DNA of 64,000 nucleotides from an uncultured Eubacteriales bacterium (GCA_900545265.1 UQYI01000001.1:4145-68144), one strand, 5' to 3'. Shown: positions 6,001-18,228, counted from the first letter of the stretch. The notes: generated from the sequence alone by a model not told the origin. Program-made: numbers and translations.

Positions 6001-6734
6001 ATGATCTCCAACTCAAGGGTTGGCTCCTCAGTGCCAGGAAGCTCCGAATCGACTGCCGGATCGGCCGGCTGCGCATCCGTTTCAGATTGTGCGTCAGACG
6101 GTTCGCTCGTTTCCGTATCCACCATCTGGTCATTTTCCGGAGTTACTGCGGTTTCCGTCTCCGGTTCGGACTCAATAGACTGATCCGCTTCCGGTGGCAG
6201 AATGATCGGCTCAGTCGTGATCATCGGCTCGGGCGTCGGTTCCGGCGTCGGCTCCGGCAACGAGTCCGTTTCTGCACCGACAAAACGCCACGAGAGCGAT
6301 TGCCCGCCCGTTTCCACCGTCACCAACCGGTTGCTGCTGAACAGCGGCGCAAACGATACAATAAAGTCGCTCGCGGTGTTTCGATAGACCTGAGTGCCAT
6401 CTTCCAGCGTGACCAGCGTCAACGTATTATCGATGGGTTGCCATGCACCATTCATCAGGTAGTTGACCGGCTCGGCATATACAACGGCCTCGCGTGCGCC
6501 ATCCTCCCTGAGAAAGACGCGGATGCTTTCCGCTCTTCCGGCCGCATCTTCGCCCACCAGAGGACTATATGGAAGCTCTTGTGACCCTGAAAAGCTATTT
6601 GTCTCCGCATATGCTTCGATTGCCCGCTGTTCTTCTATCTCATCTGCGAGCGTCTTGGCCGGCGAGGCGATATAGTACACAAACATCATGACAGCCACAA
6701 GGCTCAAACTCAGAATCCGTTTGAATGCTTTCAT
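1..6734 (-). CDS. RHS/YD-repeat polymorphic toxin precursor RHS-1 (WapA-like), 3' end beyond window
   Basis: Absent from the ORF track because its stop lies left of base 1. The reverse frame from ATG 6734-6732 (RBS GGGAGAGGAAAC) has no stop down to base 1; I confirmed frame continuity at 5381, 980 and 428. Signal peptide MKAFKRILSLSLVAVMMFVYYIASPAKTLA. Acidic/PEPTPEPTPEP linker (~5830-6260). YPLSIDPDVSINF...TVTWNTKPA DNRLRE-like module (~5045-5370). NHGFEESTWPSSW CBM-like jelly-roll modules (~2850-3800). Many YD repeats. Core end FRYHGYVYDEETGWYYLLSRYYNPTVGRYLSADT...YAYCLNNPTTNYDPSG (780-980). Confidence 0.85.
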   Translation of the reverse strand, partial: MKAFKRILSLSLVAVMMFVYYIASPAKTLADEIEEQRAIEAYAETNSFSGSQELPYSPLVGEDAAGRAESIRVFLREDGAREAVVYAEPVNYLMNGAWQPIDNTLTLVTLEDGTQVYRNTASDFIVSFAPLFSSNRLVTVETGGQSLSWRFVGAETDSLPEPTPEPTPEPMITTEPIILPPEADQSIESEPETETAVTPENDQMVDTETSEPSDAQSETDAQPADPAVDSELPGTEEPTLELEIIEPEAETAPTATPAPEAESNPTEPAASEEQLPAEDELTEAAFDLSAFDTLAITDAVAQIVTNTETFSAESAEAVAALTDEERDMQLRFPSSLQSEIAYVDPATGLNVRYVLSGKTLREYITLASAPERAVAYSVEIQAMGVSPVTDEAGATAFVNASGQPVFTLGQAIMYDAAGEQSSAIEAHLSEFNADTGTCTYTLIPDTEWLQSADRQYPLSIDPDVSINFSSAVQDTFVNSGSGNGNYSSYQYMRVSKSHEALIYIPNANLPTLSSGDVILKATLNLNRYNSNTNKENKEINLSAITGTWNHTTVTWNTKPAHNSAVDSFGVSTVPGQYTSFDITKIVKNWYETPSSNRGVALYNTGSYSDLSSSEYTANANRKPYYSVIYRNSTGLEDTWAYYSQSIGRAGTGSVNAFSGNLTMTHADASVSNGVLPISLSHVYNTNDRTANIGYGYGWRLNYAQSLKKVSVTNLSGTATYYQYIDGDGTRHYYKADGTSTTQYVNELDKDSVLTISGTTVTITDKGDNKLIFECDSSVANGRLTTIRDANGNETNIAYTTTTITNLRISSITEKLAGNDAGQALTLAYTNDLLSQVTAPNGLNVSYAYSDTNLTGITYADGETVSYTYNGNRCLTKATNIDAYSISYSYTAGAPYRVTRAAEAAGSTNGQYLTFTYGRNKTTVADAQGRRTVYHTDNIGQPVSVTDPEGRAVFATYNTASQTVTQLKAVSKMQMTVVNLLKNHGFEESTWPSSWTRSDSGNLTNDSSRRHTGAYSCKITAGSAARTLSQSVSVTSGQTYTLSAYFSGTLNTAYLKVTNGSSTIQSPAVTAGGTGWNRESLTFTAASSTITVAVIVPAGSGTVYVDSIQLEKGAAPNRYNMVMNSDFTSGTSNYTMNYANYCAIVDVADAKYAAARDTHPSFLDSKVYEMNGTSKAEKIKQTFLSGSTGDTYTFGAWIASNNIPQTKQQIYTSSGSTTTKDYGIKRLVLQFLNSSGTVVCSGYVNFAADTDEWQFASGTVTATSSYAQMQIVVEYTDSLNVLYVDGLQLHKEQFATGYSYDSNGNLSGTVSLIGQQNSFGYDSNDNLTSMTDARGNTTTYTYDSKHNLLTSTSPEGVVTSNTYNDFGLATETKVGTEADYIRTTTTYDSASGIAINETDASGNTVTYTLDPVSRTRTAITDARNNTTTYTYGSPANYGRLQTITTEGLNPITYSYTTNGEIQSISRGGTSYNYSYDVWGRSLGLAVGEFSLSTNVFNSAGLLSEVEYGNGFAVKYSYDNLDRLIAVQQKLPGSTSYATAYEYVYNGDGELYEERNYLNNRALFREYDHSGRCIASIEKTFTGSSNSLTYGTVVSTYLYHYDANNNISRIQQSVAGSSWSMVYTYDKDNHGLTTTLENGVVLTNSYDAIGRVQSKQIGLSTPYSINVSYKNGVNGSSSILLDTYRNGTDDAYSYTYDANNNILSVAQGSTASSYVYDAANQLVRANIYNSSTDSYTAIYAYDGNGNLTSKTLYPYTTDELGTATSTIQYGYATEGWSDQLTSYNGQSIVYDTSGNPTVYLGQSLSWNGLQLTGVGSNISYAYDKDGIRQTKTIDTATTQYYYNGNVLMGTYDGINKLLFSYDDQSNVVAVDYNGTYYYYLRDGQGSIVKLIDGNGSTVVSYSYDPWGVCTTTGSMASTLGALNPFRYHGYVYDEETGWYYLLSRYYNPTVGRYLSADTLSSTGQGVLGYNMYAYCLNNPTTNYDPSGSLSFSNIFSGASLLSIGLAAVAIGATILTCGAAAPIMVAVAAATTTTGIVTVANGIAEVQEGLTATNDTSNDGQNFMRDAFFRGDKAAYEKQRDVIATVAEVGTFLCTAYIGIKGGVCFVAGTAVLTAAGQVPIESISEGDLVYASDPETGESGYKRVVQTFVNETDELVHLQYGGTTVTTTPTHPFYQPQKGWIDAIDLRAGDILVKSNGEYVVVEAVEHELLEEPITVYNFEVEGFHTYYVGDTSVLVHNDCTKPRS
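24..428 (-). other. Hint (intein-like) pre-toxin domain within the RHS-1 C-terminus
   Basis: Translation CFVAGTAVLTAAGQVPIESISEGDLVYASDPETGESGYKRVV...THPFYQPQKGWIDAIDLRAGDILV...PITVYNFEVEGFHTYYVGDTSVLVHN. It has the N-terminal Cys block and the C-terminal HN typical of Hint/intein folds. After HN the sequence reads DCTKPRS and runs off the window. Confidence 0.7.
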
Positions 6735-6931: not shown

Positions 6932-6967
6932 AACAACGAAAACAGAGTGGCAACGATGGCCACTCTG
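6932..6967 (-). terminator. Rho-independent terminator separating the orphan-cassette operon from RHS-1
   Basis: Minus strand reads CAGAGTGGC-catcgtt-GCCACTCTG followed by TTTTCGTTGTT: a perfect 9-bp stem plus a U-run. Confidence 0.65.
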
Positions 6968-7095
6968 TTCAGAATTGTGGTGGTATTTGGGATGGTGCAA
7001 TTTGCCAACCAGAAAACATAATGCAAAGCTATTGCAAGTTCTTACACTATGTTCCCGCAAATCAAATACTGGCCATCTCGTTGAACTGGTCGCAA

Positions 7096-7175
7096 TTATA
7101 GCTCTTTGATCACTGCGCCGTTACCGTCAACAATCATCGTCACGCTGCCGCGGATATCGTACCGGTAGAAGGCAT
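7096..7175 (-). pseudogene. Vestigial RHS core fragment (scar)
   Basis: Reverse translation AFYRYDIRGSVTMIVDGNGAVIKEL-stop matches the YFFYRYDIRGSVTNIVDGEGSIVKSY segment of RHS-2 and the orphan at both DNA and protein level. Only ~25 codons remain and there is no start codon. Confidence 0.6.
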
Positions 7176-7230: not shown

Positions 7231-8682
7231 TTAAATAAAGTCGATGGTATAGTCCCCCTCATGCATACGCGGGGCGCACCGCTCATACCGCTCCTGCAGC
7301 ATCTGCTTGATGTCGTACGGGTGCCGGTAATCCCGGTCCCAGATCGTGTCGCTGCAATCCGGCGTCAGCTTCAGCCGCCGCTTGATCAGTTTCAGGTTTT
7401 CCTCATACGTCCGATGCAGCCGCTCCTCTATCGCCACCTCGTCCCGATTCTTCAGCAGCAGGTATTCCTCCCGTTTGTTCTCCTTCGCCTCGATCACGCG
7501 CTCCATCCCCTCGTAGTCGTCCCAGCCGCGCACGCCTGGCGTCGGACGGGAAACGGAATATCCGCTTGCATCTCGCAGCGTCTTATGCCACAGTTCCTCA
7601 TACATCCGGAAAAAGCAATACTGGTTGAATACGACATTTACCGGCTCTCTCAGCAGTTTATAGTTCTCTACCGTCGGCGGCCTCCATTCACGCTCCGATG
7701 CCTGTTTAGAACAATCGTACCGTCTGTAATAGACAAACGTCCACCATTGGATCTCCATCACCGCGTCCCGCACGTTGGTGATCCTGCGCAGCATCGGTTC
7801 CACCACCTGGCCGAATATCTCCTCCACCGTATACCTTGTCCATTTGGTTAGGTGGAGATCGTCGCAAGAAAAAATATAATGAACCGAACGCGAATCATGA
7901 CGCCAGTCCTGCATTTTATTGGGCGTATCTTGAACTCTCATGACATACGGCAAACTCTCCAATTTTTCGGTCATAAAAGAGTCCAAATATGGCATGAAGG
8001 TTGGCTGAATGCTAATCAACATGTTAAATAATCCGTTATATGGCACCAGTCCGAACGATAGCAGCACCTCGTCGCGGATCAGCTTATACCACCTGTGGTA
8101 CTGGAACGTCGTAAACCCCAGTGCCGCCATCCGTTCCCCAAAGGTTTCCTGCGCATATGCATCCAGTCGCTGCGAAGCGGTCGGCTGCTTTCGCTTGTGC
8201 TTCCGCTCGCGTTTGTCGGCCTCCATCTGCTCTGCCAGCTCCGCGTCCGGCAGCAGCGGCAGCTTGAGATACGCCGCCAGTTCCTCGATCTGCTGCATCG
8301 TGTCCAGCGGGACGTCCATCATCAGCCGCTCCAGTGTCGCGCCGCCCGCGTCTTCTACGCCAAATGCCGCTGTGATCTGCGCCATGTTCTGCGGCGTTTG
8401 AGAGAGTCCTTCATCCAGCGATGACACACCGCCAGCCACCGCGTTGCCGCCCCGATAGAGCGCCAGCGCCACCGCATCTTCATCGAAACAGTAAAAGGCC
8501 AGCACGTCTATGCCGGTCTCGCGCGAAAGCGTCTCTGCATCCGCATACAAGATAAGCGGATTGTCCCAGTCGGGGTCATACACGCTGACCCGCCCATCCT
8601 GTTCCCTGCGGTGTGGGTTTGCAGCCTGCTGCTCCTTCGTCAACGTCCCCATCAAGTGCAGACTCCCGATCGTCAGTCCCAT
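7231..8682 (-). CDS. Hypothetical 483-aa cytoplasmic protein, candidate immunity partner of the orphan toxin
   Basis: Track ORF 7231..8853 trimmed to MGLTIGSLHL, which is preceded by AGAAAGGAGCGGAGAAAC (RBS). This start removes the overlap with the upstream gene. No signal peptide or TM segment and no motif I recognise. It sits directly 3' of a toxin cassette. Confidence 0.7.
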   Translation of the reverse strand: MGLTIGSLHLMGTLTKEQQAANPHRREQDGRVSVYDPDWDNPLILYADAETLSRETGIDVLAFYCFDEDAVALALYRGGNAVAGGVSSLDEGLSQTPQNMAQITAAFGVEDAGGATLERLMMDVPLDTMQQIEELAAYLKLPLLPDAELAEQMEADKRERKHKRKQPTASQRLDAYAQETFGERMAALGFTTFQYHRWYKLIRDEVLLSFGLVPYNGLFNMLISIQPTFMPYLDSFMTEKLESLPYVMRVQDTPNKMQDWRHDSRSVHYIFSCDDLHLTKWTRYTVEEIFGQVVEPMLRRITNVRDAVMEIQWWTFVYYRRYDCSKQASEREWRPPTVENYKLLREPVNVVFNQYCFFRMYEELWHKTLRDASGYSVSRPTPGVRGWDDYEGMERVIEAKENKREEYLLLKNRDEVAIEERLHRTYEENLKLIKRRLKLTPDCSDTIWDRDYRHPYDIKQMLQERYERCAPRMHEGDYTIDFI

Positions 8683-8767
8683 GTTTCTCCGCTCCTTTCT
8701 ACCCGTTCTGCCGCAAGAAAACCGGCGAACAGCTCCATCTCTTTTCCGAAACCCTTTCTGTCTTTCC

Positions 8768-10018
8768 TTAAAACATACGGAACGCCATAGTATTCCACCA
8801 TCTGCCGCCTCCGCCCATGGATAACCCATATCCCGGAGAATATCCGGTTGCATAGCCCGGCACGGCTGCGCCTTGCTTCTCTGGGGGGATGATCCCTATC
8901 GGAGGAATGATCGGTATGCTCCTCGGCGCCTTTACTTCGGAAGGACTATCCTCCCGCGCTTGTTCTCGCGCAGGTTCTTGTTCGGCTTGCCAAAAGGCAT
9001 ACTCTATTACTCCTGGGATTGTACTCCAGTATTCTACATTAAAAACACTATTATCCTCTGTTTTCATAACGGTTTGCCCTTGGAACTGTGTTGTTGACGG
9101 ATGCAATGGCGCCTTTACATCGATCTTTGAACTCACGACTGTCGCCCCTGTATATCGACTCAACTGCATGAGCGCCAAAGCTCTGGGTATCATCGGAAAA
9201 TTATCATTATGATGCTTTACTTCCCAAATTTCTCCTGTTTCCAGATTAAGAAGATCTACTCTTCCACGCCTTCCATTTGAGCAAGTCACCACTTTTTCCA
9301 TCACTATATTTAAATCTGTCTCCGCAATACTCACTTGTACAGCGTTATGGGCGTCCCTGTAAACTGCTATACGCTTCTTCCAGGGCCAGAAAAGCCAGCC
9401 TTTTGGATAACTCGTCTCGGCTTCATGTCCCGTCGGGTCGACCATGTTGACGGGGTTGTTGTTGCAGTAGGCGTAGAGGTGCTGCGTCCAGGGGACGGAG
9501 GCAGAGCCGGTGTAGCTGTCCTGCGAGAGGAAGCGGGCGGTGGCGGGGTTGTAGTAGCGTGCGTTCATGTACAGAAGGCCGGAGGCGTCCGCTACGCTCC
9601 CCGTGAACGTCACCTCGTTGAAGAACGTGTCCCCCGTGCTGGTCGTCACGCCGAACTCGTCGTAGTCGTAGCTCTTGACGATGGAACCCTCGCCGTCCAC
9701 GATGTTTGTCACGCTGCCACGGATATCGTACCGGTAGAAGAAGTAGTCGTCCGCGTACGGGTCCTGCCCGGTGGCTGCCTGCCCCTCAAACCGCTTGCTC
9801 GCCACGATCGTGCCCGACGGGTCGAGGATGTTCTGCGTCTGCAGCACGTACTCGTTCACCGTCGTGAACAGCAGGGCGCTGCCCGAGTAGTAGAAGTGCG
9901 TAACGACCTCGTCCTGCACGCGCGTCACGCGCTGCCCTGCGCAATACGTCCTTGCGCCGGTCGGCAGACAGATGCGCCTGCCGACCGGCACAGGGATTCC
10001 ATTCAAGTTGTTCGTCAT
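8768..10018 (-). CDS. Orphan RHS C-terminal cassette: core remnant plus PD-(D/E)xK-like toxin tip
   Basis: 416-aa ORF with its own ATG. The first ~195 aa are near-identical to the last core segment of RHS-2 (THFYY.GSALLFTTVNEYVLQTQNILDP...ARYYNPATARFLSQD...YAYCNNNPVNMVDPTGH). An unrelated 218-aa tail follows (8771-9424), containing GRVDLLNLETGEIWEVK (D-x10-E-x-K). Confidence 0.8.
   Translation of the reverse strand: MTNNLNGIPVPVGRRICLPTGARTYCAGQRVTRVQDEVVTHFYYSGSALLFTTVNEYVLQTQNILDPSGTIVASKRFEGQAATGQDPYADDYFFYRYDIRGSVTNIVDGEGSIVKSYDYDEFGVTTSTGDTFFNEVTFTGSVADASGLLYMNARYYNPATARFLSQDSYTGSASVPWTQHLYAYCNNNPVNMVDPTGHEAETSYPKGWLFWPWKKRIAVYRDAHNAVQVSIAETDLNIVMEKVVTCSNGRRGRVDLLNLETGEIWEVKHHNDNFPMIPRALALMQLSRYTGATVVSSKIDVKAPLHPSTTQFQGQTVMKTEDNSVFNVEYWSTIPGVIEYAFWQAEQEPAREQAREDSPSEVKAPRSIPIIPPIGIIPPEKQGAAVPGYATGYSPGYGLSMGGGGRWWNTMAFRMF
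9429..9942 (-). repeat. Direct repeat, copy 1 (RHS core 3' segment, orphan)
   Basis: Hand alignment to 12491-13005 gives about 40 differences in ~515 nt, with a ~120-nt block showing no differences. The repeat ends exactly at the codons for VDPTGH. Confidence 0.85.
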
Positions 10019-10144: not shown

Positions 10145-10875
10145 CTATGGCATATACAGTTCGGCGTATCCAAGCAGCTCCTCGTCATTGAAAAGCAAAT
10201 TGGCCCCTGGCAAAAAGCCGACATACTCCTGTTCCAGTAGGAGAAAAAAGCAGTCTCGCGTAGCGACCGTTTCCCCCAGTCCCACCAGACGATCAACAGC
10301 GCGCTTTCCGCAACCCGTAACGAGAGCACCTCTTCGCTGATGGACTCTTTCGGAATGTAAGGAACGCCATCGTCCATTGCAAATTCCCCTATTGCAATGT
10401 TGACGATATGGCTCTCGGCGTCAAAAGACCGCACAATCCCCGGCGCCTCTGTCAGCGCGCGATTTCCTGCCGCCAAGTCCGCTTTGCAAGCGTCCTACGG
10501 AATGCTCATCGGATGCAGCTTCGCCTGCGAAGACTGCAAATCCATCTGATAGCGGCAGCCATAGGCAAAGCCGGAATCTCGATACGATAGCTCGCCCAGG
10601 CAATACTTCTGTGTATCATCCTGCAGGTAAACCAGCTCATGCCCCTCCGTTGCAGACTCCTCAAGCGTAATCGAGCACGCAGTCGGATCGTTCGACCACT
10701 TGTCACCCAGATCATAGCAAAGTCCAAATCCATCCAGCCAGAAAACGATGTCGCACCCGTACCTTTCTCCTGCTGTGATCTGAATGTCTGCAGGATTCGG
10801 CTTTCCCTGCCGCGGCGCGCAGGAGAGGGACAAAGCGGCACAGCAGCAGACGAGCGCCAAAAGAAGCTTTTTCAT
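10145..10875 (-). pseudogene. Decayed paralogue of the 10994-11794 lipoprotein (N-terminal 126-aa ORF still intact)
   Basis: ORF 10495..10875 has lipoprotein signal MKKLLLALVCCCAALSLSC and shares the motif G.DI..W.(D/G)(G)FG.CYDL with the upstream lipoprotein. It ends at TAG 10495-10497, and the same frame stays open afterwards. After a frameshift near 10300 the reading ...AVDRLVGLGETVATRDCFFLLLEQEYVGF...LYMP-stop resembles ...RDILLGLMERGYFET of the intact paralogue. Confidence 0.5.
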
Positions 10876-10993: not shown

Positions 10994-11794
10994 TTAAGGG
11001 TTGCAGATCTCCACCACCAGCCTGATCTGATCCCCTTCTATAACAAGCCAACACGGCGTTTCAAAATATCCCCGTTCCATCAGGCCCAGTAAAATATCCC
11101 GTTTGACCAGCATATTGGCAATGTTTTCATCAAAACAGCTTATGACGCCTAGCGCCTGCTCCTGCAACGCGCACTGCATCTGCTCTTTCTGTACGTCTTT
11201 TTCAATCCAGACCGCATCCGACAATACCATGTCACATTCCGACACATAAATCTGGCCCTCTTGCTCAGAGGCAGAAACCACTCCGCCAATTCTGCGCTCC
11301 CAGTCATCGTACAGCGCTATGGGCGTACAAGGCAAAAGATCGGCTTTTATGTCATAGTAGGTATAAAAATCATAGTAGACGCCATAGCGGTTCGGCTTGC
11401 TGTAAGTCCTCAACAGTCCAATGCGGTATCGCCTGTCCCCGTGACGCAACCAAACCGGATATCCGTAACCTGCCGGTTCCTGATAATCCAGCAGCGGATG
11501 TCCCTGCTCAAGCAATCGGTGTTCATCCTGACAACCATCCAGAAAAACGTCTTCTCCAATTTCTATACTGCATGCCTGCAGGCAAAAAGCCTCTTCATCA
11601 AGATCATAGCAAAATCCAAAATCGCCAATCCAGCAAATGATATCACGCCCTACCTCATCACCGGAACAAACAGATACTACAGGCAACGCACCGTTTGCTG
11701 TTGGCTCGCGATTGTGCTCTCCCAATTCAGTTGAAGAACATGCGACTGTCATTACAATTGTAACAAGAATGAACAGACATACGATTTTCTTCAT
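10994..11794 (-). CDS. Lipoprotein, candidate immunity protein for the NlpC/P60 tip of RHS-2
   Basis: Track ORF 10994..11812. The likelier start is MKKIVCLFILVTIVMTVACSS (lipobox VAC) with AAGAGGA 8 nt upstream. The alternative ATG at 11812 overlaps the RHS-2 stop by 1 nt (TAATG). The gene is immediately 3' of the toxin gene. Confidence 0.75.
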   Translation of the reverse strand: MKKIVCLFILVTIVMTVACSSTELGEHNREPTANGALPVVSVCSGDEVGRDIICWIGDFGFCYDLDEEAFCLQACSIEIGEDVFLDGCQDEHRLLEQGHPLLDYQEPAGYGYPVWLRHGDRRYRIGLLRTYSKPNRYGVYYDFYTYYDIKADLLPCTPIALYDDWERRIGGVVSASEQEGQIYVSECDMVLSDAVWIEKDVQKEQMQCALQEQALGVISCFDENIANMLVKRDILLGLMERGYFETPCWLVIEGDQIRLVVEICNP

Positions 11795-11811
11795 GATTGT
11801 ATCCTCTTTCA

Positions 11812-14800
11812 TTACCCGCTATATCTGGCGTATCCTAAAAATTTTGCATTTTCGTTACCACCGTACATTTGATAATTTTCAACTGGTCTGAATGCTACTC
11901 CACCGCCGGATTCTGTTGCGTCTATCATATACCCATCACCAACATACACCGCAACATGGCAGGGACGACCCTCTTGCTTGGTCCAATAAATCAAATCCCC
12001 CGGAATCAAATCATCGGTAGTAAAGCTGTTTGTTTCGTAAAATTTCCATTTTTCATTGGCAGCTCCAAACTCTCCCGGGTTGTCACGTTTTAAATAATGC
12101 ACCTGTAAACGAGTGGTATTTGGAAAGCTAATATCCCCACTTGAATGAACCGCTGCTGCTACCAGTTCTGAACAATCCATGGTTCCAGGGGTTCGAACAT
12201 ACCTCTGTTGCGTAGCATCATATGGGGAATAAGGTGTTCCCAAATATTGGGCAGCAGTTTCAATCCATTGTAATGCTACAGTAGACGCCCCGGAACTTTT
12301 GGCCACCTGGATTGCTTTTTCACCGTCCGTTACTGCCCCTGCTGTCGGACTGGGAGTTGGGACCACCTGCATTCTTACAGGTGTAGGCTCCGGTTTCTCT
12401 GTAGGTTCCGGCTCGGGAGGTTGGTTACTACATCCTGTAGTAGCTGCCGTCACCAATGCAATCAATATAACGACCAGCCAGGAGGAATGCCCCGTCGGAT
12501 CGACCATGTTGACGGGGTTGTTGTTGCAGTAGGCATACAGGTGCTGCGTCCAGGGGGTAGAGGCGGAGCCGGTGTAGGTATCCTGCGACAGGAAACGGGC
12601 GGTGGCGGGGTTGTAGTAGCGGGCGTTCATGTAGAGCAGGCCGGAGGCATCCGCTACGCTACCGGTGAAAGTAACCTCGTTGAAGAACGTATCGCCCGTG
12701 CTGGTCGTCACGCCGAACTCGTCGTAGTCGTAGCTCTTGACGATGGAACCCTCGCCGTCCACGATGTTTGTCACGCTGCCACGGATATCGTACCGGTAGA
12801 AGAAGTAGTCGTCCGCATACGGGTCTTGCCCGGTAGCCGCCTGCCCCTCGAACCGCTTGCTCGCCACGATTGAACCCGCCGGGTCAAGGATGTTCTGTGT
12901 CTGCAGCACGTACTCGTTCACCGTCGTAAACAGCAGGGCAGAGCCCGTGTAGTAGAAGTGCGTAATGACCTCGTCCTCCACGCGCGTCACGCGCTGCCCC
13001 TGCGCGTTGTACGCATACGTCGCGCTCGTCGACAGCGGGATCACCGCGTTGTTCGAGATGTTTGTAGAGGTCAGCCGGTTCGCCAGATCGTAGCCATAGT
13101 TCGTGGTCGTCGTCACGCCCGTGCCCGTCTGCACCTGCTGCGTCTGGTTCCCCCGCGCGTCATAGGTGTAGGTCGTCACCGCCGTGCCCTGCTGCACCCG
13201 CGTCAGCTGGTTCAGGTAGTTGTAGGTATACGTCTCCGCCGTCTCCGTGCCCTGCTGCCGCGTGAGCCGGTTCCCCACCGCGTCGTACGTATACGTCGTG
13301 GTCGTCCCGTCGTACGCCGCCGAGATCAGGCGGTTGCCCAGGTCATACTGGTACGTCCGCGTCTTCATCGTGCTGCCGCTGTACGCCTCCGTCACCGCTT
13401 CGGTCAGGATGTTCCCGTTCCCGTCGTACGTCAGGTTCGTCTCCTCCCGCACCGTCCGCGTCTCCCCGTCCACGTCCGTATACGTCAGCTTCACCGGCAG
13501 GCCGAAATCGTTGTAGGTATATGCCAGTTCGGTTGTCAAGGTGCCGCCGGTCAGGAACGACGTGTTGTCCGTGACCGTCTCGATATCCCCATAGGCGTTA
13601 TACGCATATGAGCGGATCAGCTTCTTGTTGCTTGTTGGGGAGGTTGTGCTTGCCGAGCCCGCATCCAGATAGATCGCAGAGAGCCGCCCATCAGCATCAT
13701 AAGTATACCACAGGATGTGCAGCTCCGTATTGCCGGGATTGAACGAGCCCTGCGCGCTCTCCTTCGCGTATGAGATCGCCGTGACCTGCCCCGCGCTATT
13801 GTACCGGTAGTTCACTGCCAGCGCCCCGGCCTCCGCCTCCGTCTCCTGCCGCTGCTGCGTCACCCGCCCGTACTGGTCGTACGAATACGCCGTGGTCACG
13901 CTCTGCTGCGTCTCGCCGCTGCCGGTAATCTGCACCGCGCTCTCCAGACGGCTCCCACCATTGCTATAGGCGTAGGAGATGGCGATCTCCGGCGCTTGTG
14001 CCGATGCGGAGGCAAAGTACTGCTCGCTCACGACGTTGCCCACCGCATCGTAGGCATACCGCACGACGCTGCCGTCCTCCCGTGTGACTGACGTTACCTG
14101 CCCGTGCGCATCGTACGTATACGCCGTGGTCATGCTCTTCGTCGCGTCGTCCGGGTCGGTCACCACGTCGCGCAGCTTGCGCCCGCTGTTATCAAACACC
14201 GTGGTGGTTGTTACGCCTTTTGCGCTGGTCACAGCATTCGCCACCCCGCCGGTTACGCTCTGGTCGTAGGCATAGGCCGTCGTGGCCGTTACGCCAGAGG
14301 AGAGCGGCTGGCGCACCTCAGTGAGGCGGGAGAGAGCATCGTAGGTATAGGTGGTGGTGGTACCGCGGCCATCGGTGACGGAGGTGTTGTTACCCAACAT
14401 ATCATAGGCCGCCGAAGTTGTCAAATCAGCCGATGGGACATAACCGGAAAGCCTCTCGCCGTGACTGCCCAGCTTTGTACGGTTTGCTGCGGCAACGGCC
14501 GCTGTCAGCGTTCGATTGCCCAGCGCATCGTACTCTGCACGCACGACTCGATTGCCCGTTGCGCCTCCGAGAGTCTCCACCACGGTCTGGTTGCCCATGT
14601 AATCGTAGCGGTAGACGACCGTCATGCCTCCGCCAGTTTGCTGGACGGCACGGCCGTTTTGATCGTACCATGTGGTGGATGTGCGTTCCTCAGGATCGGT
14701 CACGGTCACGCGGCGCACGCCGTAGCTATCGCTGCCCAGATAGGTGTAACTGGTCGTCAGCGCTCCGTTGCCCGAACCAATGCGGGCGGTGCTCACGCGC

Positions 14801-17800
14801 CCCATACTGTCATAGGTATAGGTGGTGACCACACCCTCCACATCGCGTGCGGTCAACGCAAGACCCGCCACGGAATAGGTGTACGCTTCGTACGCGCCAT
14901 TTGCATATGTTTTCTTCGTGAGCAGGCCGCGCCAGTCGTATTCGTATGCTACGGCATCCTCCATTCCGTCTGTCGCCGCTGTAGCGGTGCGGCCATAATC
15001 GTCATACGTATAGCGCACGACAGAGAAAGGCGTCTGCCCCGCGCCGTTGGCGCTCGATATGGTGGTCACGCGGCCCTTGGCATCGTAAACATACGACACA
15101 TATCCGCCGTTGCGGTCGGTCGTGGCGATCAGATAGCCATAGTCGTTGTAGGCGTTCGTGGTCATTTTGCCGGCAGGATCGACAGCTGTCAGCACCTGCC
15201 CGGCAGCATTATAAGTATAGGTTGTGGTCTGGTAACTGCTGCCGTTTTTGACCTTGACGGTTTTGGGCTGATTATACTGATAGTTCTGGTAGAGCGTTTC
15301 TCCTAAGAGCGTATCCCCCTGCGTGATCGCCATGCGCGTCAGGTCGCGCGTCGTTTCATCGTAGGTGTAGCTCTGCACGATGGGCGTTTCGCTTGCTGCG
15401 CCCTCCACGAGGTTGGTGTAGCTGACCGAAGCAAGCAGCAGATCGTCGGTATAGGTGTAGTTGATCGGATGACCGTCTGCGTCCTCACACCGCGTGATCA
15501 CTCCGGTCGCGGGAACGTAGGTATAGGTGGCAACGGTGTATGCTGCATCATCCCCGATCTTTGTCTTGACGGTGGTGGTAGCTGCGCTGTATGCAAATTC
15601 GGCAGCCTCCTGCCCGCCTGGGTACGCTATGCCAACCAGTCGGCCAGCATTATCATACGTCAGTGTATAGACCCGGTTGTCCGGATTCTTGATCGTGGAG
15701 AGGCCATTCTCCGAATAGGTGAAGATTTCGGTATACCCGCTATTGCCGGAGAGCGCGTGGGTGGCTGAAATGAGCCGGTCCTGTGCATCGTAGGCATAGG
15801 TATAGGTGATACTGGGCTGGTCGCCCTCCGTGCTTGTCCAGGTGAGCGACTCGAGCATATCGATATGCTCGTTGACATACAAGTAATCCACCTCGTTGGG
15901 AAGCACTTCTTCGTAATTTGTGGCTTCCGGTGCTCTGCTTGCCCGCGTGGATGGGCTTGTGCGCTGCACCTTGTAGGTGAGCGTCAGCTTGTCACCAACG
16001 CTGTTTGCCACTTCCACGACATTGCCACGCGCATCATACGTAAGCGTTAACGCTGCACCGGCAAGGTTGGTGAAAGATTTCAAACGCATAGTCTGCGCGT
16101 CGAAATGGTAGGTGATGTTGTCCTTGCGCGTGATCGTGTATTCGGCTGGTGCATCCGCCGTGGCTTCGATATAGGCAAGCACCATCCGTGTACCGGGCGC
16201 GCTTGCATACGTGCCGTCCTCCTGCAGCGCAAAGCGGTGTAACGAACCATCGCCATCCTTGAGGATCAAGCCCACTTCTGTTCCGATCGAATCGTATTCG
16301 CGCATCAGTACAGTATTGAACGAATAATCCCACCCCACGCCGAGCGCCGTCTTGCTTGTCGTCTGGCTGTTGAACGTACGCCGCATGGCCATAGCAAAAA
16401 ATGGATCGGCAACCACGAGATCGCTCGTTTGATATACCACATTGCCGTTGGCAACGTTGACATACCCTGCGCCACTATCCGTGCTGAACTGAGCATAACT
16501 CCAGTAATCCTGCAGTCCCAACTGCTTCTCCAGCTCATCCTCATCCACAACAGTGCCAACCACCTGATTCGTTGGTTCGCTAACACGCCCATTCTTTACA
16601 GCGGCGACAAGATAATAGAATGTCTTGCCATAGTTCAGGTTGAAGTCCGACCAATTGCAATCGGTCAGTCCACTGGCGACAAGTGTACTGTTGGAAAGGG
16701 TGAAATACGGAGTTTCGCTACGGTAGACGCTATATGTCACACCTTCGGTTTCGGATGGAGCCCAGCGCAGCACAGTCAAGTTGTTTGCGCCTGAAAAGGC
16801 GGAAAGATTGTTTGGTGGGTCAATCAGTGAGACCGTCTGCGCTTCACCCGGCATGGCAGCACGTACCTCCAGCGACCAGCTGCTGAGCACAGGTTTTTCA
16901 CCGTCTGCATTCGCCTCGAGCGTGGCACGAAGCACAATTTCCTCTCCTCCGGCTGTGACAGCGTTCCAAGTGCTCTGGTCATCAGCGGCTACGGTAGGAA
17001 CGGCCTGCCAGGTTGTGCCACCATCCGTTGATAGATGATAGGTGATGCCTGCACCATCCGGGATGCTGGCGTCCACGATCAGACGAGTTGCCTCAGCCTC
17101 GCCGGCAAGCAGACGGCGGGTGCTCTGGACGGTACCGGACTCGCTCGCATTTGATAGCGTTAGACCGCCGCTTTCGAGAACCTCCGTGTTGTTCAGTTCG
17201 GTAAATCCACGCGCATCTGTCAAAAATGCAGTCTGAATTAGTTCGCTGGAGCCATAGAAGATATAGCGGGTTTCCGCATAGATTTGGTCGATCGTCGGAG
17301 ATGCTGTGGCGGTGCCCTTTCCCAACGTAGCGCGTATACGTACGCTGCTGCTGGTGTTGCTGCCGTACAGATACAGCCGGTTCGCTTTTGTAACGGTTAC
17401 ACCGCCATCCGTGGAAACCGGCGTAATTGTCTGCCATGTATCGCCATCCACCGAAATCTCATATCCTATCGACGAACCAGATGGTACCGTCTGGTTGACG
17501 ATCAGATCAATATAGGAAATCGTACCGCTTAGCGCAAGTACAGGAGTGATAAGCATGCCGCTTTCGCCCGTCAGTGCTGCAATGCCGTCGGTGACTGCTA
17601 CACCATCAAGCGTGAAGCCGCTGGTTCCATTCGCTGGCAGAAAGAGGTGCTGCTTTTCGTAAGTTGAATGGCTATAGACTGGTTCACCTGCTTCGTCGAA
17701 GGCCATGACATAGAGATAGTGTGTGGAACCTTCAGCAAACCCTGACGGGAGTGTGAAGGACAAGCCGGGCTCGTCCTCTGTCTGAGTATCTCGTACCACA

Positions 17801-18228
17801 TTATCCACTACAAATTTTGCTCCGCTATATATCGCGGTATCGGAGGAATCGGCCTTTGTATAGGTTGCCGCCCATGTACCGTTCGCAGAGTCAGTCTGAA
17901 TCGTATGCGTCAGCCCTGCATCGACCTGCCGGCTACCCTCGGCCTTGGTCCAAGTCGCCGTTTGGCTGGCTGTGTTGCCCGCCTGATCCCATGCGGTCAA
18001 GGTCAACGTATACGTCTGCTCATTGTCGAGTCCGGTGATGTTCCAGCGTGCAATAATCGCATCCGTTAGCGTTGTCGTGCCGGTTGCAATTGTTGTTTTT
18101 TTCCGTAGAAGTTCCTGTCCCGAGATGATACTCCAGTTTCCATCCGGAAAAATCATTTGCGTTTGTGGTAATTGTCGCGCGTACCTGCACAATCCCACCC
18201 GTGTCCGAGACGACAGTCGGGCCCGCAA
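11812..18228 (-). CDS. RHS/YD-repeat body of RHS-2 with C-terminal NlpC/P60 domain (5' part displaced by frameshift)
   Basis: 2138-aa ORF with dozens of YD repeats (YTYD, YAYD, YEYD...). Core end LYMNARYYNPATARFLSQDTYTG...YAYCNNNPVNMVDPTGH, followed by a 224-aa tip. The first ~45 listed residues (MRARLSSRTRVGLCRY...) look out-of-frame. The real sequence joins the 18020-20536 ORF at the A7 run. Confidence 0.9.
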   Translation of the reverse strand: MRARLSSRTRVGLCRYARQLPQTQMIFPDGNWSIISGQELLRKKTTIATGTTTLTDAIIARWNITGLDNEQTYTLTLTAWDQAGNTASQTATWTKAEGSRQVDAGLTHTIQTDSANGTWAATYTKADSSDTAIYSGAKFVVDNVVRDTQTEDEPGLSFTLPSGFAEGSTHYLYVMAFDEAGEPVYSHSTYEKQHLFLPANGTSGFTLDGVAVTDGIAALTGESGMLITPVLALSGTISYIDLIVNQTVPSGSSIGYEISVDGDTWQTITPVSTDGGVTVTKANRLYLYGSNTSSSVRIRATLGKGTATASPTIDQIYAETRYIFYGSSELIQTAFLTDARGFTELNNTEVLESGGLTLSNASESGTVQSTRRLLAGEAEATRLIVDASIPDGAGITYHLSTDGGTTWQAVPTVAADDQSTWNAVTAGGEEIVLRATLEANADGEKPVLSSWSLEVRAAMPGEAQTVSLIDPPNNLSAFSGANNLTVLRWAPSETEGVTYSVYRSETPYFTLSNSTLVASGLTDCNWSDFNLNYGKTFYYLVAAVKNGRVSEPTNQVVGTVVDEDELEKQLGLQDYWSYAQFSTDSGAGYVNVANGNVVYQTSDLVVADPFFAMAMRRTFNSQTTSKTALGVGWDYSFNTVLMREYDSIGTEVGLILKDGDGSLHRFALQEDGTYASAPGTRMVLAYIEATADAPAEYTITRKDNITYHFDAQTMRLKSFTNLAGAALTLTYDARGNVVEVANSVGDKLTLTYKVQRTSPSTRASRAPEATNYEEVLPNEVDYLYVNEHIDMLESLTWTSTEGDQPSITYTYAYDAQDRLISATHALSGNSGYTEIFTYSENGLSTIKNPDNRVYTLTYDNAGRLVGIAYPGGQEAAEFAYSAATTTVKTKIGDDAAYTVATYTYVPATGVITRCEDADGHPINYTYTDDLLLASVSYTNLVEGAASETPIVQSYTYDETTRDLTRMAITQGDTLLGETLYQNYQYNQPKTVKVKNGSSYQTTTYTYNAAGQVLTAVDPAGKMTTNAYNDYGYLIATTDRNGGYVSYVYDAKGRVTTISSANGAGQTPFSVVRYTYDDYGRTATAATDGMEDAVAYEYDWRGLLTKKTYANGAYEAYTYSVAGLALTARDVEGVVTTYTYDSMGRVSTARIGSGNGALTTSYTYLGSDSYGVRRVTVTDPEERTSTTWYDQNGRAVQQTGGGMTVVYRYDYMGNQTVVETLGGATGNRVVRAEYDALGNRTLTAAVAAANRTKLGSHGERLSGYVPSADLTTSAAYDMLGNNTSVTDGRGTTTTYTYDALSRLTEVRQPLSSGVTATTAYAYDQSVTGGVANAVTSAKGVTTTTVFDNSGRKLRDVVTDPDDATKSMTTAYTYDAHGQVTSVTREDGSVVRYAYDAVGNVVSEQYFASASAQAPEIAISYAYSNGGSRLESAVQITGSGETQQSVTTAYSYDQYGRVTQQRQETEAEAGALAVNYRYNSAGQVTAISYAKESAQGSFNPGNTELHILWYTYDADGRLSAIYLDAGSASTTSPTSNKKLIRSYAYNAYGDIETVTDNTSFLTGGTLTTELAYTYNDFGLPVKLTYTDVDGETRTVREETNLTYDGNGNILTEAVTEAYSGSTMKTRTYQYDLGNRLISAAYDGTTTTYTYDAVGNRLTRQQGTETAETYTYNYLNQLTRVQQGTAVTTYTYDARGNQTQQVQTGTGVTTTTNYGYDLANRLTSTNISNNAVIPLSTSATYAYNAQGQRVTRVEDEVITHFYYTGSALLFTTVNEYVLQTQNILDPAGSIVASKRFEGQAATGQDPYADDYFFYRYDIRGSVTNIVDGEGSIVKSYDYDEFGVTTSTGDTFFNEVTFTGSVADASGLLYMNARYYNPATARFLSQDTYTGSASTPWTQHLYAYCNNNPVNMVDPTGHSSWLVVILIALVTAATTGCSNQPPEPEPTEKPEPTPVRMQVVPTPSPTAGAVTDGEKAIQVAKSSGASTVALQWIETAAQYLGTPYSPYDATQQRYVRTPGTMDCSELVAAAVHSSGDISFPNTTRLQVHYLKRDNPGEFGAANEKWKFYETNSFTTDDLIPGDLIYWTKQEGRPCHVAVYVGDGYMIDATESGGGVAFRPVENYQMYGGNENAKFLGYARYSG
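11815..12279 (-). other. NlpC/P60 cysteine peptidase domain (toxin tip of RHS-2)
   Basis: YLGTPYSPYD...GTMDCSELVAAAV (catalytic Cys context) ...GDLIYW...CHVAVYVGDGYMIDA (catalytic His context). It is preceded by a Pro/Glu/Thr linker and the hydrophobic segment SSWLVVILIALVTAATTGC (12430-12486). Confidence 0.8.
12491..13005 (-). repeat. Direct repeat, copy 2 (RHS core 3' segment, RHS-2)
   Basis: See 9429-9942. Same orientation, 3062 bp apart. Confidence 0.85.

Follow-up and report, generated by a model that had tools for sequence, protein, structure and literature searches.

Organisation of the locus

We analysed a stretch of 64,000 nucleotides (nt) from an uncultured Eubacteriales bacterium (GCA_900545265.1, UQYI01000001.1:4145-68144), hereafter the window, in which a truncated Rhs reading frame ending in a 218-residue toxin tip is followed by the gene of a 483-residue partner protein. 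The locus is probably a spare (orphan) Rhs toxin-immunity cassette of an uncultured gut Clostridia bacterium, stored and unexpressed. The genes lie on the minus strand throughout and are given below in gene order, with lengths in amino acids (aa) or base pairs (bp).

11812-18228, minus strand: full-length Rhs/YD gene, 2138 aa, the first in gene order
12487-13005, minus strand: core segment of the main Rhs gene that matches the orphan, just before its own NlpC/P60-type tip
10994-11812 and 10495-10875, minus strand: two lipoprotein-type genes between the main Rhs gene and the orphan open reading frame (ORF)
8768-10018, minus strand: orphan Rhs C-terminal ORF, 416 aa, from the ORF list and its translation
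9425-9942, minus strand: core segment of the orphan, a repeat of the end of the main Rhs gene (blastn)
7231-8682, minus strand: partner gene, 483 aa, the ORF after the orphan tip
7096-7172 (about), minus strand: Rhs core scar after the partner gene, reading FYRYDIRGSVT... (sequence reading)
6940-6970, minus strand: terminator-like hairpin (12-bp stem and T run) before the next Rhs gene, a pattern match only, from a consensus scan
ATG near 6734, minus strand: start of a second large Rhs gene, the last in gene order

The orphan ORF begins with about 25 non-Rhs residues, continues as a fragment of the Rhs core up to the motif DPTGH, and ends in the toxin tip. The model TIGR03696 (Rhs_assc_core) matched its residues 119-198 with E 3.5e-21. 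Because this match, ending in DPTGH, precedes the 218-aa tip, we identified the 416-aa ORF as an orphan Rhs C-terminal fragment. The initial annotation had already called the tip an orphan and placed it at 8771-9424; the core fragment confirms the former, and translation of the minus strand returned the sequence quoted there. The ORF has neither a delivery part nor a shell, against 2138 aa in the main Rhs protein upstream, and inspection of the sequence before its ATG at 10018 revealed nothing resembling a Shine-Dalgarno sequence.

The core segments of the orphan and of the main Rhs gene were 92.1% identical over 519 bp (blastn). In syntenic relatives, the tip of the counterpart of the main Rhs protein carried PF00877 (NLPC_P60, the NlpC/P60 domain). 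The gene order was identical on two metagenome contigs, L007 and L008, where the orphan layout behind a full-length Rhs gene was also present. The scar after the partner gene, in which a stretch of 33 nt was 97% identical to the main Rhs gene (blastn), is the remnant of a further cassette. A scar of the same kind trailed the partner gene in L053, a locus syntenic with the window.

The toxin tip

The features of the nuclease-type domain are as follows. The codon positions of D57, E68 and K70 were computed, and for H26, Q87 and Y91 they were worked out manually in the same manner.

8930-9424, minus strand: nuclease-type toxin domain, tip residues 1-165, with a Tox-REase-9-like or RecB/Cas4-like PD-(D/E)xK core (AlphaFold2 model, hhalign)
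9152-9349, minus strand: predicted catalytic residues H26 (9347-9349), D57 (9254-9256), E68 (9221-9223), K70 (9215-9217), Q87 (9164-9166) and Y91 (9152-9154)

The D-x10-E-x-K motif, to which the initial annotation had drawn attention, occurs once in the tip, and the codons assigned to it were correct. By itself the motif proves little: its exact spacing appeared in 2.3% of shuffled tips, and the loose form D-x(8-25)-[DE]-x-K in 36%. It is more than a chance occurrence because its residues are conserved across 140 non-identical relatives. D57 and K70 were present in all 140 and E68 in 134 of them, the other six having Asp. H26 was found in 138 of 138 sequences, Y91 in 140 of 140, Q87 in 131 of 140 and E43 in 97 of 140; further conserved positions were W67 (Trp or Tyr), Y132, G138 and Y142. 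The six predicted catalytic residues were invariant or nearly so in alignments A1, A2 and A3 as well.

A HMMER search of 1.84 billion representative proteins yielded 34 relatives of the tip at E ≤ 0.001, and many more came from a profile search of a set of 5.8 billion proteins; the family alignment held 140 non-identical sequences after trimming to the domain. The Rhs core motif NNPVxxxDxxG preceded the tip in nearly all of the 32 relatives (of the 34) that were aligned. The family was found in none of 40 relatives (16 of the 40 in the same genus) and in 3 of 399 genomes sampled from the class, the window's own genome included. The tip family is rare and almost confined to the position after Rhs cores. 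The protein cluster of the tip (P0078) had 25 member sequences from metagenomes.

Two proteins carry the domain in other settings. A minus-strand ORF at positions 1351-2922 of locus L018 (G156:C67) encodes a non-Rhs carrier of 523 aa, which combines the nuclease domain with a Sec signal, PG_binding_1 (E 1.4e-13) and a hydrophobic tail at its C-terminus. No gene follows it on the same strand, and an AraC-like gene lies on the opposite one; the protein may be a toxin that lacks adjacent immunity or a nuclease associated with the wall. The gene call P0102 (554 aa, from a metagenome) unites a tip of this family with an Rhs repeat and, at residues 30-122, a Barstar domain (E 3e-20); it is probably the immunity gene of a preceding cassette run into the next orphan.

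The AlphaFold2 model of the tip, calculated from a 40-sequence alignment, had a predicted local distance difference test score (pLDDT) above 90 for residues ~10-160. The predicted elements were helix 15-34, strands 40-47, 53-60 and 65-71, helix 78-91, strands 115-121, 127-136 and 139-146, and helix 147-159. They form a core of alpha-beta-beta-beta-alpha-beta order, as in restriction endonucleases (REases), followed by two extra strands and a helix. H26 and Q87xxxY91 sit on helices 1 and 2, and D57 and E68-x-K70 on strands 2 and 3, respectively; in the model, this is the placement expected for a RecB/Cas4-type PD-(D/E)xK nuclease. Structure prediction was the test that the initial annotation had proposed for its PD-(D/E)xK assignment, and the predicted REase-type topology supports that assignment, as does a profile match to Tox-REase-9 with the catalytic motifs in register.

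In that comparison, hhalign aligned the 140 tip-family sequences to two sequences positive for PF15650 (Tox-REase-9) over 41 columns, with a probability of 94% and P 1.4e-7; GRxD, E-x-K and QLxxY were in register. Against an alignment of 28 genomic PF01930 (Cas4) matches, hhalign gave a score of 24.7 (P 0.0016), with the D, E-x-K and QLxxY of Cas4 falling on D57, E68/K70 and Q87/Y91. The reversed alignment gave P 0.81, and none of 30 block shuffles reached the real score (best P 0.012). Moreover, the sub-threshold matches in a Pfam scan of the 32 relatives included PDDEXK_1, Cas_Cas4, Tox-REase-9 and MmcB-like, all of the PD-(D/E)xK superfamily.

Several results weigh against the nuclease assignment. 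Foldseek, a check suggested in the initial annotation, found no match to the tip model in PDB or BFVD at E ≤ 0.001, the query including the disordered 58-residue tail, and the check was likewise without a significant match for the partner. The best match of the tip was a Cas4 protein in both libraries (4r5q in PDB, E 0.28, TM-score 0.21; a phage Cas4-like model in BFVD, E 0.095), and R2 restriction-like endonuclease, AbaSI, DUF559 and a phage resolvase ranked lower. The tip itself (P0001) had no Pfam match at E ≤ 1, its profile search of PDB sequences found nothing, and nothing usable emerged from Pfam, NCBIfam, PADLOC, PHROGs or PDB sequences. The hidden Markov model (HMM) of PF15650 did not match the window's genome at E ≤ 0.001. 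With a cut-off of 27.3 bits, it scored above that value in 2 of the 399 genomes of the class, and it matched 1 of the 32 tip relatives, at E 0.076. Finally, the Tox-REase-9 comparison is limited to the two sequences and 41 columns mentioned. On balance, profile comparison marks the tip as a remote homologue of Tox-REase-9 and not as a member of the Pfam family PF15650; it is a new, HMM-invisible subfamily of a known clade of toxin nucleases.

The fold leaves the substrate unfixed. Some toxin tips of the PD-(D/E)xK fold, e.g., the CdiA-CT toxins of Burkholderia, cut transfer RNA (tRNA). An RNase, for instance a tRNase, would also suit a tip domain that is not basic (isoelectric point, pI, 5.6) and has no DNA-binding accessory domain. 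Yet by its motifs (D, ExK, QxxxY) the tip comes closest to the RecB/Cas4/Tox-REase-9 group, in which the characterised enzymes have DNA as their substrate, and we consider an RNase instead of a DNase unlikely, albeit a serious alternative.

Between the window and L007, the tip had a ratio of nonsynonymous to synonymous substitution rates (dN/dS) of 0.45 at dS 0.38, with the frame open, and it appears to be intact and under constraint. We also considered that the orphan might be a functionless, decaying relic in which the motif survives owing to its youth. The value of 0.45 could be read as relaxed selection, Rhs scars flank the orphan, no ribosome-binding site precedes its ATG, and the partner is broken in L053. 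Nevertheless, the ORF is open, all family-invariant residues are intact, metagenomes supplied the 25 members of P0078, and an open frame at dS 0.38 argues for selection; a relic is thus very unlikely. Orphan tips are normally silent until recombined, as is established for enterobacterial rhs orphans.

The C-terminal tail of the tip

8771-8929, minus strand: C-terminal tail, tip residues 166-218, with a charged/Pro-rich linker, a Gly/Tyr-rich stretch and a short terminal helix

The translation contains the tail that was originally described as Pro-rich and then Gly/Tyr/Trp-rich. In the AlphaFold2 model, residues 169-218 had pLDDT below 50, with a short helix at 209-216. At the tail position, 24 of 35 relatives had a transmembrane (TM)-like segment of 17 residues (hydropathy ≥ 1.5); in these, a charged or Pro-rich linker leads to a Gly/Ala-rich hydrophobic segment, often with a short polar end. 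The tail of the window's own tip reached a maximum hydropathy of 0.91 and is not TM-like, being Pro- and Gly/Tyr-rich as in its closest relatives. Judged from these patterns, the tail is a feature of the nuclease clade. Since the non-Rhs L018 protein carries one too, it would be part of the toxin module, not of the Rhs shell.

Architecture of the partner protein

8692-8696, minus strand: AGGAG ribosome-binding site, 9 nt before the partner ATG at 8680-8682 (sequence reading)
8188-8682, minus strand: partner N module, residues 1-~165, a compact acidic alpha/beta domain (AlphaFold2)
7234-8175, minus strand: partner C module, residues ~170-483 (~310 aa), with conserved first ~40 and last ~65 residues and a fast-evolving middle

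The partner begins with MGLTIGSLH, a start common to all full-length homologues and to the second N copy of the 670-aa forms. Its frame remains open for 57 codons upstream of this start (8683-8853), overlapping the end of the tip gene and giving an ORF of 540 aa. We rejected the 540-aa ORF from ATG 8853 as the partner gene, since homologues start with MGLTIGSLH and the ribosome-binding site lies before ATG 8682. In the equivalent region, relatives have a stop or a separate ORF of 37 aa, and the open frame is probably a meaningless overlap. The protein had no TM-like segment (maximum 19-residue hydropathy 1.44) and no match in Pfam, NCBIfam, PADLOC, PHROGs or PDB sequences, in keeping with its first description as a 483-aa cytoplasmic protein without a recognised motif.

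The N module was modelled as a mixed alpha/beta domain with pLDDT 77-94, and it is strongly acidic (pI 4.2, net charge -14). Strong acidity is a trait of many nuclease inhibitors. The C module has a near-neutral charge. Its first conserved block reads FGERMxALGFTTFKYHRWYKLIRDEVLLSFGL, and the last one RRLKLxPDCxDTIWDRDYRHPxDI ... GDYTIDFI. Between the window and L012, identity was 0.93 in the first block, 0.25 in the middle and 0.73 in the last block; the two end blocks had dS of 0.7-0.8, and the middle, where poor alignment may inflate the difference, was saturated. The N and C modules showed no similarity to each other.

Homologues in the protein search fell into three classes, namely N-C proteins of 481-493 aa, N-N-C proteins of 638-671 aa in which the first ~180 residues occur twice, and C-only proteins of 284-327 aa that span partner residues ~170-483. 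In L011-L014, a C-only gene is followed after 26 nt by a gene for a 154-aa protein with 46% identity to the N module (E 1e-41). Because N and C occur elsewhere as separate adjacent genes and in N-N-C proteins, the partner is shown to be a fusion of two modules. The initial annotation had suggested a fusion of immunity modules; the fusion stands, and the immunity role we infer. Standalone N proteins of 159 aa were set aside as a natural form, being produced in L053 by a broken C module. The partner family was found in none of the 40 relatives.

The modules also turned up apart from the tip. The window's own genome holds a second copy on contig C27 at ~12120-13585 (L003-L006, L065-L067), in the order C then N, between GNAT-like and ABC-F-like genes and with no Rhs nearby. 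There, C is broken by a frameshift and a TGA codon, and N is intact and 35% identical to the window's N. In L054-L056 (6001-10263), three genes stand in tandem, coding for an N-N-C protein of 671 aa, an N-C protein of 488 aa and a protein of 216 aa with one hydrophobic segment. At least 7 contigs conserve this tandem, which is flanked by genes for an EamA transporter and a PBP5-type carboxypeptidase and has no toxin within 6 kilobases (kb) on either side. A lone 513-aa N-C gene lies in housekeeping surroundings in L015/L016.

The array in L012 is a decayed Rhs array, because an ORF in it begins with scrambled pieces of the window's Rhs shell. This ORF (7429-8151, 240 aa) has a start near-identical to two separate parts of the shell and then continues as unrelated sequence; it is followed by a HEAT-repeat protein (PF13646, E 7e-10). 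The two resemble an orphan tip in decay, accompanied by an immunity gene of HEAT type. In P0041, a C-module protein of 327 aa from a metagenome, the first ~35 residues are a YD-repeat fragment (RHS_repeat, E 2e-4 among A5 members), i.e., an Rhs scar fused in frame to the C module. A search for tip remnants in the tip-less C/N loci found none.

Linkage of the tip and the partner

The partner directly follows the tip in four loci. It is a whole N-C gene in the window, L007 and L008; in L063, the contig ends after the partner's first 52 residues. In the window, the two genes are on the same strand with a gap of 85 nt. The four tips are 61-100% identical; the L063 tip has 61% identity (about 51% over the catalytic domain), and the genes upstream of it differ from the window's. 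Because L063 keeps the pair despite the divergent tip and different upstream genes, the tip and the partner appear to move as a cassette. The region upstream of the L063 tip (1-1465) holds a different toxin end, with an HTHPD-type motif among its last residues, and a gene for a 219-aa lipoprotein-like protein; because these differ, the nuclease cassette lies in a different array there.

Relative to L007, dN/dS was 0.45 for the tip, 0.54 for N and 0.41 for C, against 0.02 for the shared Rhs core, a contrast that fits a fast-evolving toxin-antidote pair beside a homogenised core. The tip and the N module each had 74% aa identity, with dN of 0.17 and 0.15, respectively.

By BLAST, the partner gave only weak N-terminal matches to the downstream genes of six other tip-family loci, whose products have 229, 229, 242, 252, at least 209 and 378 aa. 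By hhalign, the C module was remotely similar to the partners in L009 (P 8e-5 over 124 columns) and L017 (P 1.4e-3), with reversed controls at P 0.26-0.57, whereas the N module showed no similarity to partners of other tip-family members. The excess size of the window's partner can be assigned to the N module, because C alone (314 aa) is within the length range of the other partners. We rejected the placement of the C module under DUF4304/Imm54, as it had no similarity to four DUF4304 sequences (P 0.15). The other tip-family partners gave P 0.0016 against DUF4304, and that of L017 gave E 0.041, which is below the cut-off.

The 483-aa protein is probably a polyimmunity-type antidote of the tip. 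A number of findings speak against such a role. Foldseek found no fold match for the partner model in PDB, the C module was poorly modelled (pLDDT 30-66) and lacks the likeness to DUF4304, and in L053 the C module is broken up into three ORFs beside an intact N. Alternatively, the partner could be no cognate antidote and belong to an independent family, with another immunity role or an unrelated cytoplasmic one, the true immunity gene of the tip having been lost or never having existed. Homologues without a toxin in housekeeping contexts (L015/L016 and the 671-aa and 488-aa tandem of L054-L056) or at the head of decayed arrays (L012), the pseudogenised C module of L053, partners of 229 to 378 aa elsewhere in the tip family that are unrelated by BLAST, and a family named by no library searched would all be compatible with that. 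We nevertheless consider it unlikely. The order of tip and partner is kept in four loci, one of them with different upstream genes; the 85-nt gap on one strand is combined with a good ribosome-binding site; the tip and the N module are equally diverged; and the C module is remotely similar to two other partners of the tip family. The partner modules also occur in toxin-less arrays, as orphan immunity genes do, and such genes are expected for real immunity families (PMC3482391).

Either module may be the one that neutralises the tip. The C module is favoured by its likeness to other partners, and the N module by its adjacency to the tip, its acidity and compactness, and its tip-like divergence. 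That the two so persistently keep company suggests joint action. Their retention as N-C, N-N-C and C-then-N suggests one functional unit and not two independent antidotes.

Proposed mechanism

On the whole, we estimate a probability of about 0.62 that the locus is a spare Rhs cassette with a PD-(D/E)xK nuclease tip and a two-module partner that is most likely its antidote. A single crossover in the 519-bp core repeat would replace the cell-wall-hydrolase tip of the main Rhs protein with the nuclease tip, the main Rhs gene, ~3 kb upstream of the orphan, being the recipient. With the crossover, the NlpC/P60 tip and the lipoprotein genes would be lost, and the partner gene would enter the immunity position. 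The tip, a putative metal-dependent nuclease, would then be released from the Rhs shell into a rival cell, where it would cut nucleic acid, more likely DNA, possibly tRNA. The cytoplasmic partner would most likely act by binding the tip, in the style of a polyimmunity protein. What the analysis shows is the anatomy of the locus, the patterns of family membership, the topology of the fold, remote homology, the fusion and fission of the modules, and linkage; nuclease activity, toxicity, neutralisation and deployment by recombination are what we infer, and the evidence as a whole consists of predictions and remote-homology statistics.

Tips of the nuclease family are used on this Rhs backbone, because P0044, a fragment from a related strain in another sample, carries one. 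It is 91% identical to the window's Rhs shell over the 364 residues up to DPTGH, and its tip is 34% identical to the window's; this lends indirect support to movement of the cassette onto the main gene.

A bolder proposal, which we regard as quite unlikely, joins two ideas, namely that N and C are an obligate two-part immunity unit and that the tail of the clade is a built-in membrane-entry element. The near-invariant ends of the C module would then be a scaffold or would bind N, and the middle of ~200 residues would set toxin specificity. The linker and the Gly-rich or hydrophobic tail would take the nuclease through a Gram-positive target's cytoplasmic membrane.

Significance

The locus is a bacterial weapon cassette of a familiar type with some undescribed parts, and its interest lies mainly in the architecture of the partner and in the tail of the clade. 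It adds to the REase-fold toxins a defined and testable subfamily that Pfam does not detect, with ~140 non-identical sequences in metagenomes and few in genomes (3 of the 399 sampled from the class). Human-gut Clostridia, a group in which contact-dependent weapons have received little study, gain a new, uncatalogued partner family of two modules. With its units fused, duplicated and side by side, the partner is a clean Rosetta-stone case, from which it could be learned how immunity proteins are assembled and diversify. How Rhs-delivered nucleases cross the Gram-positive membrane is a question to which the recurring hydrophobic tail is relevant. The general picture of polymorphic toxin systems is unchanged.

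Comparison with known systems

Zhang et al. (2012) described ten Tox-REase families (PMC3482391). For Tox-REase-9 the signature is GxxxH, E, D, ELKP, YxxE, and for its partner Imm54 it is GF, Q (PMC3482391). The window's tip and Tox-REase-9 (PF15650) are both REase-fold toxin domains at the end of Rhs or other polymorphic toxins; the motifs H ... E ... (G)RxD ... E-x-K(P) ... QLxxY come in this order in both, and a gene of immunity type lies directly downstream. However, the tip domain has ~160 positions and not 88; its helix 2 is followed by a beta-rich insert, and two strands and another helix are added. It also adds a linker and a Gly-rich tail (hydrophobic in most relatives), and the Pfam HMM does not match it. 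A further difference is the partner, with its 483 aa, two modules and lack of a DUF4304 match (P 0.15).

Both genuine Tox-REase-9 toxins of the class, in L057 (G195:C1) and L058 (G185:C20), are directly followed by a DUF4304 gene (E 5e-20 and 1e-13). Because both true Tox-REase-9 loci precede DUF4304, we suggest that DUF4304 is the Imm54 of Zhang et al. (2012); we found no paper that equates the two.

The Cas4/RecB nucleases (PF01930, PF12705; PDB 4r5q) have the motifs D, ExK and QxxxY in register with those of the tip. Unlike these enzymes, the tip has no Fe-S cysteine cluster, and its context is that of a secreted toxin tip and not of clustered regularly interspaced short palindromic repeats (CRISPR) or repair. 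All scores in this comparison were weak (P 0.0016; Foldseek E 0.1-0.3).

Zhang et al. (2012) also described polyimmunity, both as proteins and as loci (PMC3482391, section 39). The partner family is alike in having several immunity-type domains per polypeptide, repeats of one domain (N-N-C), tandem paralogues and toxin-less arrays of its modules. The domains also exist separately, N alone as the 154-aa protein of L012 and on C27, and C alone as the proteins of 284-327 aa. Unlike the described cases, neither N nor C belongs to a named Imm family, and the two keep company.

Orphan rhs-CT/rhsI modules downstream of the main rhs gene have reportedly been described in Enterobacteria, by Poole et al. 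in 2011 and Koskiniemi et al. in 2014. The present locus differs in its host, a gut Clostridia bacterium of Gram-positive type, and recombination is here a proposal. In both cases, a truncated core, a tip and an immunity-type gene stand behind a full-length Rhs gene and its immunity genes. Moreover, the core repeat of the window (92%, 519 bp) is placed as a tip swap would have it, and scars of earlier cassettes complete the likeness.

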